Part shown: positions 1 through 7,340 of the stretch, piece after piece
Position numbering within the stretch: the first letter of the stretch is position 1
Layout of the letters: each line of letters opens with the position of its first letter
Origin: Escherichia coli
GTDB taxonomy: Bacteria; Pseudomonadota; Gammaproteobacteria; Enterobacterales; Enterobacteriaceae
Assembly: GCF_002854065.1 (NCBI RefSeq)
Contig: NZ_CP024147.1
Reading direction: 5' to 3' (one strand)
Length of the DNA stretch: 64,000 nucleotides
Notes under the pieces: model-generated
Seen by the model: only the letters and a program-made list of their open reading frames with translations
The model's database searches: none
Told to the model about the DNA's origin: nothing
Made by a program: the position numbers and the translations under genes

Positions 1-2810
1 GTGAGTTTGCTTACGACGAAAACCACTGCATGACGCTGCACCGCCAGCCGGGCGGCGAAGGGTATTATTACCAGTGGGGCTGGTATGACGGTCCGGATGA
101 TGCGGCGTGGCGGGTAACGGGGCACCACACGGACAGCGGTGAACAGTACCGGCTGGCGTGGGACCTGGCGCAGCGCAGGCTGTGCGTGACGGACGGACTG
201 GGGCGCACGCGTTATCACCAGTGGGATGCGCAGAATCAGGTGACGGCGTACCAGGACGAAGCCGGACAGGTGACGACATTCCGCTGGAGCGACGAAGAAC
301 GACTGTTGCTGGGGATGACCGACCCTCAGGGCGGCAAATGGCGCTATGTGTATGACCGGCAGGGGCATATCACGGAGACGCACGACCCGCTGGGGCGGGT
401 GGCGCAGGCGCAGTGGCACCCGGTGTGGCACCAGCCGGAAACGGAGGTGGACGCGGCGGGAAACAGCTGGCGCTGTGTGTACGATGAACGCGGCAACCTT
501 CTTGCCGTGACCGACCCGCTGCAGCAGAACACCCGGTATCAGTATGACCACCACGGCCAGGTGGTGCAGATAACGGATGTCCGTGGGGGGAATAAATACC
601 TTCAGTGGAACGAAGACGGGCAGCTCATGCGGCATACGGACTGTTCCGGCTCGCAGACGGCCTGGTTCTACGACGAACGCACGCGGCTGATACGGATGAC
701 AGACGCGCAGAGCCACAGCACGCGCTACGGGTATGACGACAGCGGTCATCTGACGGAGGTGATACTGGCGGACGGCCGCACGGTGAATTACCAGTCAGAC
801 GCGGCGGGCAGGCTGGTGAAGTACACCAGCCCGATGGGGAGGATAACGCGCTGGCAGCGGGACGGGCAGGGCCGGGTGCGCAGCCGGACGGACGCGATGG
901 GGCGCAGGACGGCGTTCGGGTACGACGCTTACGGGCGTCTGGTCACGCTCACGAACGAGAACGGAGAACGCTACCGGTTCCGCCATGATGTGCTGGACCG
1001 TCTGGCGGAGCAGATAAACCCGGACGGCTGCCGCCAGTCGTACCGCTACAACGCGCTGAACGCGGTCACGGAAGTGGTGTTCACCGGGGACCGGGGCGGT
1101 GAAATCCGCCACCGGCTGGCGCGTGATGCGGCGGGCCGGCTCACGGCAAAGGAGACAGCCGATGGCCGTACGGAATACGTCCATGATGCGGCTGACCGGC
1201 TACTGGAAATCCGCCGCCGGCGGTCGGATGCCGGGGAAACGGACGCCCCGGAGATTATCCGCTTCAGCTACGACAGACTGGGGCGGATGCTGAGCGAGGA
1301 GACGGCGCAGGGCATCCTGACCCACCAGTACGATGAACTGGGCAACCGGACTGCCACCACCTTTCCGGACGGCAGAACGCAGCGCCATCTGTACTACGGC
1401 AGCGGCCATCTCCAGCAGATAAATCTGGACCGGGAAGTCATCAGCGAGTTCACGCGCGACCACCTGCACCGTGAAGTGCTCAGAAGCCAGGGGCGACTGA
1501 GCACGCGGCAGCTTTACGACCCCGGCGGGCGGCTGAAGCGCAGGGAGACATACAGCGGGATGCGCGGGGTGGTACCGGAGACGTTCACGGACCGGCAGTA
1601 CAGCTACAGTGGCGAGGATGAACTGCTGAAGACGCGGCACAGCCGGCGGGGGGAAACGGATTACTTCTACGACCCCACGGGGCGCATCACGGCGTGTCGT
1701 TCGGAGGATGAGGGGTATCTGGCGAGCTGGCAGTACGACGCGGCGGGAAACCTGCTGGGGAGGCGCGCGGGGGAAAGGGCCACGGCAGAAAACAGCGTGG
1801 TGCCGTTCAACCGGCTGATGTCTTACCGTGGTGTGCACTACCGTTATGACGAATTTGGCCGTGCGGTGGAAAAGGAGGGCCGGAGCGGAACGCAGAGTTA
1901 CCGTTATGATGCGGAACACCGGATGGTGGAAGTGACGACAGCGCGGGGGACATACCGGTATGTGTACGATGCGCTGGGGAGGCGGACGGAAAAACAGCAC
2001 ATCAGCCCTGACGGAAAACCGTACAACCGGACAAAATTTTTATGGGACGGGATGCGGCTGGCGCAGGAGAGCAGGCCGGAGGGGACAGGCAGCCTGTATA
2101 TCTACAGGGACCAGGGGAGTTATGAACCGCTGGCGCGGGTGGATAAGGCGGGGAAAGAGGGACCGAACCGGATACTGTATTTTCACACGGATGTGAACGG
2201 CGCGCCGGAAGAGATGACGGACAGTGACGGGAAAATCGTGTGGGAGACGGGGTATCAGGTCTGGGGTAACACGATACAGGAGAAGGACCACGGCAGGGTG
2301 GAGCAGAACCTGCGCTACCAGGGACAGTACCTCGACAGGGAAACGGGGCTGCACTACAATCTGCACAGGTACTATGATCCGGATGTCGGGCGGTTCATGG
2401 TAACGGATCCGATAGGGCTGCTTGGTGGATTAAACTTATACCAATATGCACCGAATCCGTTGGGGTGGATCGACCCGTTAGGTTTAAAGTGTGGGCAACC
2501 TGAATGGACAAATCATGGATACAAACATTTTCCTCCAAAAAACAAATCATGGAAGGATATAATTAAATCAACAAAATCAGGCCCGGCAAAATATTCTCCC
2601 GATATTGATATTAAAACGCTGGAATACGATGTTTTTAATACAGGCACACCTGTTACCAACGGTAAACCATGGAAAGTAAAAGATATGGGGAAAGTTATTG
2701 GGGCCAGTGAGGGTAAAGAATCTCAATGGGTTCGAGTTGAACTTAGCGGTGGGACAATACATGGACATCCCATATCACTTGATGAATTCCGAAGGCTAAC
2801 AACACCATGA
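1..2810 (+). CDS. Rhs-family protein, 5'-partial (YD-repeat core plus variable C-terminal toxin tip); ORF is open to the window edge
   Basis: Long ORF with repeated YD/RYxYD motifs; conserved core-end motif DPxGL (…NPLGWIDPLGLK) followed by a 107-aa lysine-rich tip; no in-frame stop upstream of the first ATG at 30. Confidence 0.9.
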   Translation, partial: EFAYDENHCMTLHRQPGGEGYYYQWGWYDGPDDAAWRVTGHHTDSGEQYRLAWDLAQRRLCVTDGLGRTRYHQWDAQNQVTAYQDEAGQVTTFRWSDEERLLLGMTDPQGGKWRYVYDRQGHITETHDPLGRVAQAQWHPVWHQPETEVDAAGNSWRCVYDERGNLLAVTDPLQQNTRYQYDHHGQVVQITDVRGGNKYLQWNEDGQLMRHTDCSGSQTAWFYDERTRLIRMTDAQSHSTRYGYDDSGHLTEVILADGRTVNYQSDAAGRLVKYTSPMGRITRWQRDGQGRVRSRTDAMGRRTAFGYDAYGRLVTLTNENGERYRFRHDVLDRLAEQINPDGCRQSYRYNALNAVTEVVFTGDRGGEIRHRLARDAAGRLTAKETADGRTEYVHDAADRLLEIRRRRSDAGETDAPEIIRFSYDRLGRMLSEETAQGILTHQYDELGNRTATTFPDGRTQRHLYYGSGHLQQINLDREVISEFTRDHLHREVLRSQGRLSTRQLYDPGGRLKRRETYSGMRGVVPETFTDRQYSYSGEDELLKTRHSRRGETDYFYDPTGRITACRSEDEGYLASWQYDAAGNLLGRRAGERATAENSVVPFNRLMSYRGVHYRYDEFGRAVEKEGRSGTQSYRYDAEHRMVEVTTARGTYRYVYDALGRRTEKQHISPDGKPYNRTKFLWDGMRLAQESRPEGTGSLYIYRDQGSYEPLARVDKAGKEGPNRILYFHTDVNGAPEEMTDSDGKIVWETGYQVWGNTIQEKDHGRVEQNLRYQGQYLDRETGLHYNLHRYYDPDVGRFMVTDPIGLLGGLNLYQYAPNPLGWIDPLGLKCGQPEWTNHGYKHFPPKNKSWKDIIKSTKSGPAKYSPDIDIKTLEYDVFNTGTPVTNGKPWKVKDMGKVIGASEGKESQWVRVELSGGTIHGHPISLDEFRRLTTP

Positions 2811-3100
2811 ACATTGATTTCTTAGGAAAAAAAGGGAATGTAATTTTTAATGACTTCTCCCTGAAACAAAGCATCCCTCTTAATGAACAGCGAGATGAAC
2901 TTAAGGAAGATATGCTCCAGGTTGAATATCCTGGTGGGTATCTTTTGGATGTTGGGTGGCGACCATCTTTTAATTTAAATGGGAATTTTTATATTTGTTT
3001 AATAAAGGATTTTGATTGGGATACTCCCATTTATAATGGTTCTGCGAAAGATATTGTCTCATTATTATTTGAAATTAACCAAGCTATAAATAAACTTTAA
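2807..3100 (+). CDS. Putative Rhs immunity protein (97 aa)
   Basis: Start ATG overlaps the Rhs stop (ccATGAac); AT-rich; position immediately after the Rhs tip is typical of cognate immunity genes. Confidence 0.6.
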   Translation: MNIDFLGKKGNVIFNDFSLKQSIPLNEQRDELKEDMLQVEYPGGYLLDVGWRPSFNLNGNFYICLIKDFDWDTPIYNGSAKDIVSLLFEINQAINKL

Positions 3101-3140
3101 AAAAGCCGGGAAGAAAATAACATCTTCCCGGCTTTTTTAT
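3101..3140. terminator. Bidirectional rho-independent terminator between convergent genes
   Basis: Perfect hairpin agccgggaag…cttcccggct flanked by A-run and T-run. Confidence 0.7.
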
Positions 3141-3143
3141 TAT

Positions 3144-3473
3144 TTAACTCTCGTCCAGCACACTAAACATCCCGTTCCGCATCCCCTTAACCACCTGTTT
3201 AACCTGATAAAGTTCCTCCCGCAGCTCCTGCACCTCGTCACTGTCAGCGATAATGGTCAGGCACCCCTCCGAAATCTTCACCGTGACACCCCGCCCGGTA
3301 TCAAATCCGGCCTCTTTCAGCCAGTCGCCCTTAAGGTTCAGGCAGGGGTGTCGTGAGTAGTACGTGGTCATGTAGGTTTTGCTGTTTATGTGGCGGGCTC
3401 TGACATAGCCGACTTTATAGCGGCGCTGTGTTTTGGAAATGGTGACTTCTGGCGTAATATCGTGTTCAGCCAT
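3144..3473 (-). CDS. SymE-like type I toxin (AbrB-fold endoribonuclease family)
   Basis: 109-aa ORF; segment LKGDWLKEAGFDTGRGVTVKISEGCLTIIAD aligns with the SymE core ([31 protein letters not shown]) as I remember it. Confidence 0.7.
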   Translation of the reverse strand: MAEHDITPEVTISKTQRRYKVGYVRARHINSKTYMTTYYSRHPCLNLKGDWLKEAGFDTGRGVTVKISEGCLTIIADSDEVQELREELYQVKQVVKGMRNGMFSVLDES

Positions 3474-3601
3474 GATTAACTACCTTGATGAGTTGCTTGC
3501 GGGGAGCGCGCTTTCGTAATCTTGCCCTGCTAGCGGATTAACTTCACAAAAATCATTTCCCAACGTCTACACTTACTCCTGTTAATATCTCAGGAGCAGT
3601 A

Positions 3602-4111
3602 ATGAATCAGCAACGATTTGATGACAGCACCCTAATCCGTATCTTCGCCCTTCATGAGTTACATCGACTGAAAGAACATGGCTTAACGCGCGGGGCGCTT
3701 CTCGATTATCACAGCCGCTATAAACTCGTCTTTCTGGCTCATTCCCAGCCGGAATACCGCAAACTTGGCCCGTTCGTGGCTGATATTCACCAGTGGCAAA
3801 ATCTGGATGACTATTACAACCAGTACCGCCAACGCGTAGTTGTTTTGCTTTCTCACCCCGCCAACCGACGTGACCACACCAACGTTTTGATGCACGTTCA
3901 GGGTTATTTTCGCCCGCATATTGATTCCACAGAACGCCAGCAGCTGGCTGCGCTTATCGACAGTTATCGCCGTGGCGAGCAACCACTTCTTGCGCCGCTG
4001 ATGCGTATCAAACACTATATGGCGCTTTATCCTGACGCCTGGCTTTCAGGGCAGCGTTATTTCGAACTTTGGCCGCGTGTGATTAACTTGCGCCATTCAG
4101 GAGTTTTATGA
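3602..4111 (+). CDS. ybgA: DUF1722-family protein YbgA
   Basis: 169-aa ORF immediately upstream of and overlapping phr (ATGA overlap), as in the K-12 ybgA-phr operon. Confidence 0.85.
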   Translation: MNQQRFDDSTLIRIFALHELHRLKEHGLTRGALLDYHSRYKLVFLAHSQPEYRKLGPFVADIHQWQNLDDYYNQYRQRVVVLLSHPANRRDHTNVLMHVQGYFRPHIDSTERQQLAALIDSYRRGEQPLLAPLMRIKHYMALYPDAWLSGQRYFELWPRVINLRHSGVL

Positions 4112-5526
4112 CTACCCATCTGGTCTGGTTTCGCCAGGATTTACGTCTGCATGATAATCTCGCGCTGGCTGCCGCCTGCCGCAATTCGTCTGCACGCGTG
4201 CTGGCGTTGTATATCGCTACACCACGCCAGTGGGCGGCGCATAATATGTCGCCGCGTCAGGCTGAACTTATCAATGCTCAACTGAACGGGCTACAAATCG
4301 CGCTGGCGGAAAAAGGCATTCCTTTATTGTTCCGTGAAGTGGATGACTTTGCCGCCAGCGTCGAAATAGTTAAACAGGTGTGCGCGGAAAACCGCGTTAC
4401 TCATCTTTTTTATAACTATCAGTATGAGGTGAATGAGCGGGCGCGGGATGTGGAAGTTGAAAGAGTGCTGCGTAACGTGGTGTGTGAAGGATTTGATGAC
4501 AGTGTGATCCTGCCGCCTGGCGCGGTGATGACTGGCAATCATGAGATGTACAAAGTCTTTACGCCTTTTAAGAATGCCTGGCTGAAACGGCTGCGGGAAG
4601 GGATGCCGGAGTGCGTCGCTGCACCAAAAGTTCGTAGTAGCGGATCGATAAAGCCCGCGCCATCCATTACGCTGAATTATCCTCGTCAGTCTTTCGATAC
4701 TGCGCATTTCCCGGTGGAAGAAAAAGCGGCGATTGCGCAATTACGCCAGTTTTGCCAGAACGGTGCCGGAGAATATGAGCAACAACGAGATTTTCCGGCA
4801 GTGGAAGGCACCAGTCGTTTGTCCGCCAGCCTGGCAACGGGCGGGTTATCGCCTCGCCAGTGTTTGCATCGCCTGTTGGCGGAACAGCCGCAGGCGGTGG
4901 ACGGTGGGGCCGGTAGTGTCTGGCTTAATGAGCTGATCTGGCGCGAGTTTTACCGTCACCTGATAACGTATCACCCCTCGTTGTGTAAACATTGTCCGTT
5001 TATTGCCTGGACGGATCGTGTGCAGTGGCAGAGCAATCCCGCACATTTACAGGCCTGGCAGGAAGGCAAAACGGGATACCCGATTGTCGATGCTGCCATG
5101 CGTCAGCTTAATAGCACTGGCTGGATGCATAACCGGCTGCGGATGATTACAGCCAGTTTTCTGGTGAAAGATTTATTGATCGACTGGCGCGAAGGCGAGC
5201 GGTATTTCATGTCGCAGCTGATTGATGGTGATTTGGCAGCCAATAACGGTGGCTGGCAGTGGGCGGCTTCTACGGGTACTGATGCAGCGCCGTATTTTCG
5301 TATTTTCAACCCGACAACCCAGGGCGAGAAATTTGACCGCGAAGGCGAGTTTATCCGCCAGTGGCTACCGGAACTGCGCGATGTACCGGGGAAATCGGTG
5401 CATGAGCCGTGGAAGTGGGCTGAGAAAGCAGGTGTGAAGCTGGATTATCCGCAACCGATAGTCGAGCACAAAGAGGCGAGAGTACAAACGTTGGCAGCGT
5501 ATGAGGCGGCGCGGAAGGGGAAATAA
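4108..5526 (+). CDS. phr: Deoxyribodipyrimidine photolyase
   Basis: 472-aa ORF; N-terminus MTTHLVWFRQDLRLHDN and FAD-binding C-terminal region characteristic of photolyase. Confidence 0.95.
   Translation: MTTHLVWFRQDLRLHDNLALAAACRNSSARVLALYIATPRQWAAHNMSPRQAELINAQLNGLQIALAEKGIPLLFREVDDFAASVEIVKQVCAENRVTHLFYNYQYEVNERARDVEVERVLRNVVCEGFDDSVILPPGAVMTGNHEMYKVFTPFKNAWLKRLREGMPECVAAPKVRSSGSIKPAPSITLNYPRQSFDTAHFPVEEKAAIAQLRQFCQNGAGEYEQQRDFPAVEGTSRLSASLATGGLSPRQCLHRLLAEQPQAVDGGAGSVWLNELIWREFYRHLITYHPSLCKHCPFIAWTDRVQWQSNPAHLQAWQEGKTGYPIVDAAMRQLNSTGWMHNRLRMITASFLVKDLLIDWREGERYFMSQLIDGDLAANNGGWQWAASTGTDAAPYFRIFNPTTQGEKFDREGEFIRQWLPELRDVPGKSVHEPWKWAEKAGVKLDYPQPIVEHKEARVQTLAAYEAARKGK

Positions 5527-7340
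<1,814 letters not shown>

Follow-up and report, generated by a model that had tools for sequence, protein, structure and literature searches.

A SymE-family gene beside an Rhs locus of Escherichia coli: a probably degraded paralogue with a conserved, predicted SymR-type antisense promoter

Among the described systems closest to the locus analyzed here is the type I toxin-antitoxin pair symE/SymR of Escherichia coli K-12 (Kawano et al., 2007, PMC1891008), in which the antisense promoter lies within the N-terminal codons of symE. The "toxin/endoribonuclease" label of K-12 SymE is now disputed, the protein reportedly having been reclassified as a nucleoid-condensing DNA-binding protein and not an RNase; for the Salmonella homologue IasE, there is a claim of RNA cleavage. 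SymE-family genes in operons with Cro/cI-type helix-turn-helix (HTH) genes, near RHS/haemagglutinin genes, have already been drawn (Kawano et al., 2007, Fig. 7, PMC1891008). In Salmonella, the 423-nt RNA IsrA is cis-antisense to STM0294.1n, and the two are expressed inversely (Padalon-Brauch et al., 2008, PMC2330248); STM0294.1n was later renamed iasE and is reported to be repressed by IsrA and induced in the SOS response (Acuna et al., 2020, PMID 32253028). As for Ssr1 of Shigella flexneri, it is encoded in the interval separating an Rhs-family gene from the following ORF; its authors regard it as a trans-acting sRNA of intergenic origin and do not describe it as antisense to a SymE gene (Wang et al., 2016, PMC4782007).

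The locus compared with these systems lies near the beginning of the window, by which we mean the whole stretch of 64,000 nucleotides of E. coli DNA that was analyzed (contig NZ_CP024147.1). In our opinion it probably (with a probability of about 0.62) represents a degraded SymE paralogue of the iasE type, which has kept its antisense promoter and lost the terminator of the antisense RNA, the sense promoter/LexA region and the HTH gene. The features discussed below, in window positions, are the following:

30–2810, plus strand: ORF encoding an Rhs core and toxin.
2807–3100, plus strand: ORF of 97 aa from the ORF list, in ATGA overlap with the Rhs stop codon.
3098–3139, both strands: bidirectional intrinsic terminator with a 17-bp stem and T-runs on both strands.
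3144–3473, minus strand: SymE-family ORF from the ORF list, 109 aa plus stop, intact from ATG to stop codon.
3274–3402, plus strand: match to the Rfam isrA model (RF01385), antisense to codons 24–67 of the SymE-like ORF; 112.9 bits against a gathering score of 51.
3433–3460, plus strand: predicted SymR-type antisense promoter, within codons 5–14 of the SymE-like ORF.
3468–3520, plus strand: predicted truncated SymR-like antisense RNA, homologous over its first ~30–40 nt, with the terminator hairpin missing.
3474–3495, minus strand: what remains of the native 5' UTR of the symE-like gene, with its Shine-Dalgarno sequence AAGGTAG (3486–3480).
3496–3529: residual right end (inverted repeat) of an ISAs1-family/H-repeat element, fused to the symE-like UTR.
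3576–3581 and 3591–3596, plus strand: inverted repeat CTCCTG-N9-CAGGAG, covering the ybgA Shine-Dalgarno sequence AGGAG.
3602–4111: ybgA, followed by phrB and then by dtpD.

A preliminary description of this DNA had pointed to a 109-aa SymE-like ORF, and its coordinates and length proved exact. The ORF matches PF08845 (SymE_toxin, Pfam) over residues 16–75 and model positions 1–53 of 54 (E 2e-19, 69.9 bits), and in BLASTP it is 42% identical to K-12 SymE over 72 aa (E 1e-16). With 50.7 bits it does not reach the curated cut-off of 132 of the NCBIfam SymE equivalog NF010128, which argues for a member of the family that is no orthologue of K-12 SymE; on these sequence grounds we take the ORF to be a paralogue of K-12 symE, and it belongs to the subfamily of Salmonella iasE/STM0294.1n. 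It shares with K-12 the PF08845 domain, the position of the predicted antisense promoter in the N-terminal codons and the predicted 5' end of the RNA at position +6 of the ORF, but it differs in its context (an Rhs locus versus hsd/mcr), in the core of the protein, only 42% of which is identical, and in having no LexA box. With STM0294.1n it has in common the subfamily, the position convergent to the last Rhs/immunity cassette and the Rfam isrA match. DNA identical to positions 2700–3700 (1,001 bases compared) is found in E. coli PapRG-06-5 and CUWW06, and the product of these identical copies is named "SymE family type I addiction module toxin" by PGAP. A protein search yielded 371 homologues, which are called SymE family wherever they are named at all and which come from Escherichia, Shigella, Salmonella, Citrobacter, Kosakonia, Erwinia, Pectobacterium, Xenorhabdus, and Yersinia; pairwise dN/dS between the gene and other full-length copies was 0.25–0.6. 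The protein, if made, would be expected to act in a SymE-like manner, which in the case of K-12 SymE means nucleoid condensation via DNA binding.

As to the neighborhood, the statement that the symE-like gene follows an Rhs immunity gene holds for the arrangement, the gene being adjacent and convergent to the 97-aa ORF, whereas the designation "immunity" is given by position only: the 97-aa product falls into no NCBIfam or PADLOC family and is a "hypothetical protein" for PGAP. PADLOC assigned no defence-system family to either the SymE-like or the immunity-like protein. The terminator at 3098–3139 is common to the two convergent genes. At the end of the immunity-like ORF there is a plus-strand sigma-70-like site (TTGAAA-16-TAAACT, 3069–3096, 9/12 consensus positions), transcripts from which would start at about 3103, i.e., just inside the bidirectional terminator and at the point where the Rfam Ssr1 alignment considered below begins.

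The preliminary description had further supposed, by analogy with SymR, a short plus-strand RNA at approximately 3440–3530, and had proposed to look for its promoter at about 3400–3450. A candidate promoter was indeed found there, with a -35 element TTGGAA at 3433–3438, a 16-nt spacer and a -10 element TAATAT at 3455–3460, and the start predicted from it, at about A3468, corresponds to position +6 of the ORF, as in K-12 SymR (the antisense 5' end reads AGCCAT in the window versus AGTCAT in K-12). The arrangement TTGGAA-16-TAATAT-7-AGCCAT is kept in 14 distinct copies across genera, its geometry being that of the annotated K-12 symR, and the -10 element stays TAATAT or TAGAAT even in copies whose encoded residues differ. 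Near the ORF start it is the sole sigma-70-like match of at least 8/12; no more than 8 of its 12 positions agree with the consensus, and it lies below the default threshold of the promoter scan. Synonymous codon identity among 13 related sequences amounts to 0.85 in codons 1–18 versus 0.71 elsewhere, the highest value of any 18-codon window, an excess that could also reflect constraint on translation initiation or gene conversion. We conclude from these sequence comparisons that the cis-antisense promoter predicted in the first codons is conserved, and that an RNA begun there would overlap both the start codon and the Shine-Dalgarno sequence.

The RNA expected from this promoter is truncated, so that of the proposed transcript the promoter and the start survive scrutiny whereas the terminator hairpin has been deleted. 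Our own covariance model of SymR-like RNAs (R1, the E-values of which are rough) gives the window 26.2 bits, with 28 model positions, those of the terminator, deleted, against 94–101 bits for intact copies. Comparison with SymR gave a divided result: some 30–40 nt are homologous, but the Rfam symR model finds no match in the window at E up to 10, compared with 95.3 bits for K-12 and 48.9 bits for the comparison locus L052 (such loci are designated below by L and a number). The window RNA gives no fold signal (z +0.29 and +0.55), no plus-strand intrinsic terminator was found at 3140–3750, and the complete SymR-like RNA, composed of a 5' stem-loop and a terminator hairpin, is not present in the window, which distinguishes it from K-12 SymR. 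The antisense prediction was therefore correct in outline, the element being of a known kind and degraded.

Better-preserved copies of the gene carry what the comparisons identify as a previously unannotated SymR homologue of ~81 nt with its 5' end at ORF +6. In L052, the Rfam symR model matches the antisense strand at 2932–3006 (48.9 bits, E 5.5e-8) with the 5' end at +6 of the ORF, and K-12 SymR likewise begins at +6 of symE. As this does not reach the gathering score of 61 bits, standard annotation would miss these homologues. RNAalifold, applied to K-12 SymR together with six SymR-like RNAs, yields two hairpins, the 5' stem-loop and a 15-bp terminator hairpin. Compensatory changes are seen in 12 pairs, the covariation term being -4.6, and for the L052 RNA the folding energy is -37.3 kcal/mol (z -6.8). 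Thus the RNA of the better-preserved copies is homologous to K-12 SymR both in sequence and in its two-hairpin structure. Among loci of different contexts, DNA homology starts only ~15 nt upstream of the symE-like ATG, and copies with an upstream region of their own have a long spacer hairpin with many compensatory changes. The homologues are located at L052 2926–3006, L047 2926–3006, L035 4926–5006, L057 4326–4410 and in L043, L045, and L014, in each case between the HTH gene (or its remnant) and the symE-like gene.

Most of the better-preserved copies are situated downstream of a Cro/cI-type HTH gene, and in many full-length copies the symE-like gene follows it on the same strand at ~80 nt; beyond the HTH gene there is a divergent primase-helicase gene, with an integrase gene nearby. 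An integrase, a primase-helicase, an HTH gene, and SymE beside polymorphic-toxin cassettes are also what Fig. 7 of Kawano et al. (2007) depicts. In that work each gene is proposed to have either a protein regulator or an sRNA, whereas the better-preserved copies have both the HTH gene and the SymR homologue; K-12 symE, unlike most of these copies, has no upstream HTH gene, and the window, in contrast to the Fig. 7 architecture, has lost it. A block consisting of an integrase, C-terminal/immunity cassettes of polymorphic toxins, symE, HTH, and a divergent DnaG-primase/helicase recurs in L035–L040, L045–L046, and L052–L056 and looks like an integrative island abutting Rhs loci; its HTH protein matches the PADLOC capH and control-protein models. 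The order Rhs gene, immunity gene, and convergent symE-like gene is recurrent in Salmonella and E. coli, and a gene of the iasE type faces the final Rhs toxin/immunity cassette, in convergent orientation, in E. coli, Salmonella, Citrobacter, Erwinia, and relatives. Degraded relatives occur as well: L014 and L015 are frameshifted, L007, L027, L031, and L059 are 5'-truncated, and L017 and L025 contain several symE-like 3' fragments each. In arrays found in L017 and L025 (Enterobacteriaceae MAG UBA5654), in L010, and in L043–L044 there are up to six symE-like 3' fragments per 12 kb, each following a toxin/immunity cassette, and it would seem that orphan Rhs modules carry the 3' half of symE and the terminator along with them.

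The 5' UTR of the window gene aligns with those of intact copies (L047, L052, L035, and L043) only to about -26/-30. Sequences matching the adjoining segment 3496–3529 are found at the 3' ends of both ybfL and ybfD of K-12 and, in three copies, in L024, and the terminal motif of the segment, CAGGGCAAGAT, occurs in L059 as well, at an ISAs1 left end. Read on the minus strand, the breakpoint is CAGGGCAAGATTACGAAAGCGCGCTCCCCGCAAG / CAACTCATCAAGGTAGTTAATCATG, the left part of which is the right-end inverted repeat with the last codons of the ISAs1/H-repeat element. A homology to K-12 that seemed to reach the symE start codon was rejected, as it is actually the C-terminal coding end of the ISAs1 transposase. 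This coding end resembles the native UTR around AGT(T/C)(G/C)CTTG, and this short similarity is the probable deletion junction. In E. coli L047, which has a different symE allele at the same rhs-ybgA locus, a SymR-like RNA, an HTH gene remnant, and an insertion-sequence 3'-end fragment are still present before ybgA, and the window would most likely be a deletion derivative, roughly 300 bp shorter, of an L047-like ancestor. Among 5,426 complete E. coli genomes, up to 100 have 80% or more of positions 3144–3601 in common with the window; one of these was checked directly, and in it the junction is identical and the ORF, though only 91% identical, is intact (dN/dS 0.44). The intactness of the ORF despite this divergence may reflect expression from an unrecognised promoter. 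K-12 has an insertion sequence (ybfD) where the window has the symE-like gene.

ISAs1-family elements or their ends were also observed near or inside the 5' ends of other symE-like genes, namely at L003 9939–9974 and 10893–10930, at L024 2558–2591, 3186–3219, and 3277–3307, at L057 4571–5121, and at L059 2695–3975; in L059 the ISAs1 left end breaks the symE-like ORF at about codon 27. The hosts are E. coli K-12, other E. coli, an Escherichia sp., and Salmonella, and the symE-like 5' end may be a recurrent hotspot of insertion or recombination.

As to the sense strand, the absence of a canonical LexA box upstream, already remarked on in the preliminary description, was confirmed: there is no CTG-N10-CAG core in 3474–3947, and a LexA 20-mer scan of 3400–3760 was empty, although the K-12 symE box, used as a positive control, was found. 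No sigma-70-like site that lies upstream of the ORF and is directed towards it reaches 8/12. Weak CTG-N10-CAG cores do occur in L047 and L057, directly adjoining the SymR-like hairpin at the place that the box has in K-12, and the equivalent position is deleted in the window. Across the whole window such cores number 27, versus 13.9 expected from shuffles, with none near the symE-like gene; this excess is probably due to codon usage.

The reading that we prefer may be put as the following sequence of events. In the intact form, the antisense RNA transcribed from the promoter in codons 5–14 would cover the start codon and the Shine-Dalgarno sequence and would end at the covarying hairpin. A deletion of roughly 300 bp would then have fused the ISAs1 right end to the 5' UTR ~26–30 nt upstream of the ATG, removing the RNA terminator, the HTH gene remnant, and the site of the K-12-type promoter and LexA box. 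As a result, the sense gene should be essentially silent and not SOS-inducible, and the antisense promoter should still fire, its transcript pairing with any sense mRNA at the site where translation begins and, without a terminator, running on towards ybgA-phrB; Rho-dependent termination before ybgA is possible. Read-through from the rhs-immunity operon may add a long antisense RNA resembling IsrA or Ssr1. The most likely present state would thus be a silent ORF with an active antisense promoter reading towards ybgA-phrB.

An unlikely alternative is that the locus is a fully functional pair of the IsrA/IasE type, in which a long antisense RNA starts at the 3' end of the ORF, beyond it, or at 3274, and the SymR-like remnant is irrelevant. 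The isrA match at 3274–3402 scores 112.9 bits, IsrA is 423 nt long and expressed inversely to STM0294.1n (PMC2330248), and Ssr1 of Shigella maps to the same kind of locus. The Salmonella copy matching the Rfam isrA consensus (L027 2534–2797) adds to this: on its antisense strand, the distance between the end of the single predicted terminator and a point 2 nt beyond the stop codon is exactly 423 nt, and IsrA would therefore probably span the whole ORF from the convergent terminator, as a transcript distinct from the SymR-like RNA. This mapping of the IsrA ends is, however, indirect, being made through L027, which encodes an N-terminally rearranged protein of 87 aa, carries a 4-aa deletion in its core and is without the SymR-type promoter region, in all of which the window differs from it. 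Moreover, no conserved promoter was found for an RNA starting at 3274, which is position 1 of the isrA model; GATAAT at 3249–3254, 20 nt from this point, is not conserved. The isrA model itself matches the antisense strand of nearly every SymE-like copy, fragments included (12 loci), and the conservation is of the coding type: in RNAalifold of 12 copies the covariation term is -0.37, compensatory changes affect 2 of 32 pairs, and a conserved RNA secondary structure was not found in the isrA region. Matches to every copy together with near-zero covariation indicate that the model mostly recognises the reverse complement of conserved coding sequence. Finally, the window has neither a sense promoter nor a LexA box, while iasE is reported to be SOS-induced.

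As for Ssr1, the Rfam model (RF02627) aligns to the window only in part, antisense to the symE-like ORF (3103–3443, plus strand), with 91.2 bits against a gathering score of 820 and with a 364-nt segment of the model absent. Thus, what the window shares with Ssr1 is the Rhs-adjacent position and this antisense alignment, in contrast to the description of Ssr1 by its authors. Antisense control of this SymE type, suggested in the preliminary description, is supported in outline, but it is not new, IsrA/iasE of Salmonella and Ssr1 of Shigella having been published.

The 4-aa deletion mentioned above affects the most conserved motif of the SymE core (SLHLKGDW) and is present in L027 2534–2797 and in the Shigella proteins P0021 and P0025; its carriers are thus the Salmonella copy of the iasE type and the common Shigella flexneri copy. 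The SymE homologues that were studied experimentally may therefore be atypical or defective proteins.

Rather improbable, in our judgment, is the view that the gene is inert, a remnant decaying into a pseudogene with neither strand active, and that the apparent conservation results from recent common ancestry and from gene conversion between paralogues of Rhs arrays. It agrees with the many relatives that are 5'-truncated, frameshifted or fragmentary, with the complete loss of the gene in K-12 and with the deletion of the regulatory region in the window. But the ORF is intact both in the window and in the junction-sharing genome, at only 91% identity and dN/dS of 0.44, and the -10 sequence TAATAT/TAGAAT is kept across genera although the residues differ. 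The literal form of the initial model, i.e., an SOS-inducible symE orthologue under LexA with a short SymR, accords with the membership of the gene in the SymE family and with the SOS induction of the Salmonella homologue, so called by Acuna et al. (2020), but is highly improbable in view of the equivalog score of 50.7 against a cut-off of 132, of the absence of a LexA core within 470 nt upstream in a scan that detected the K-12 control, and of the deletion of the position equivalent to the K-12 box.

Concerning the region before ybgA, a perfect inverted repeat had been noted at approximately 3570–3590. It exists and overlaps the ybgA ribosome-binding site, but its true position is 3576–3596, ~6 nt to the right. 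It folds at -8.8 kcal/mol (z -2.66), and its arms are identical in K-12 and L058, the loops being different. Since K-12 has these arms and no symE-like gene at this place, the repeat is assigned to the leader of ybgA and not to the symE-like gene. Its interpretation as a LexA operator was ruled out by the N9 rather than N10 spacing and by its conservation upstream of K-12 ybgA. Further downstream, the interval between phrB and dtpD (5508–5711) contains a cluster of REP-like repeats, with a full-score match to Rfam ES036/CssrF at 5589–5631 (75 bits) and sub-threshold matches to naRNA4/CssrE on both strands.

More broadly, and only tentatively, we propose that RNAs of the SymR type are general and unannotated in the SymE paralogues linked to polymorphic toxins, that most of these paralogues have dual regulators, the HTH protein and the RNA, that SymR, IsrA and Ssr1 belong to one antisense system, and that in this lineage the loss of the terminator has made the orphaned antitoxin promoter an upstream promoter of the ybgA-phrB operon, phrB encoding photolyase. 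The main value of the analysis is for annotation: it relates SymR, IsrA, and Ssr1, RNAs that each bear a name of their own, to a single protein family, it shows that what the Rfam isrA model picks up is mostly the opposite strand of conserved coding sequence, and it identifies SymR homologues that escape Rfam at the gathering threshold. For the SymE-like gene of this genome, neither SOS-inducibility nor a complete toxin-antitoxin pair should be assumed. If it is true that the promoter without a terminator reads into ybgA-phrB, this would be a small case of regulatory exaptation following an insertion-sequence-associated deletion.
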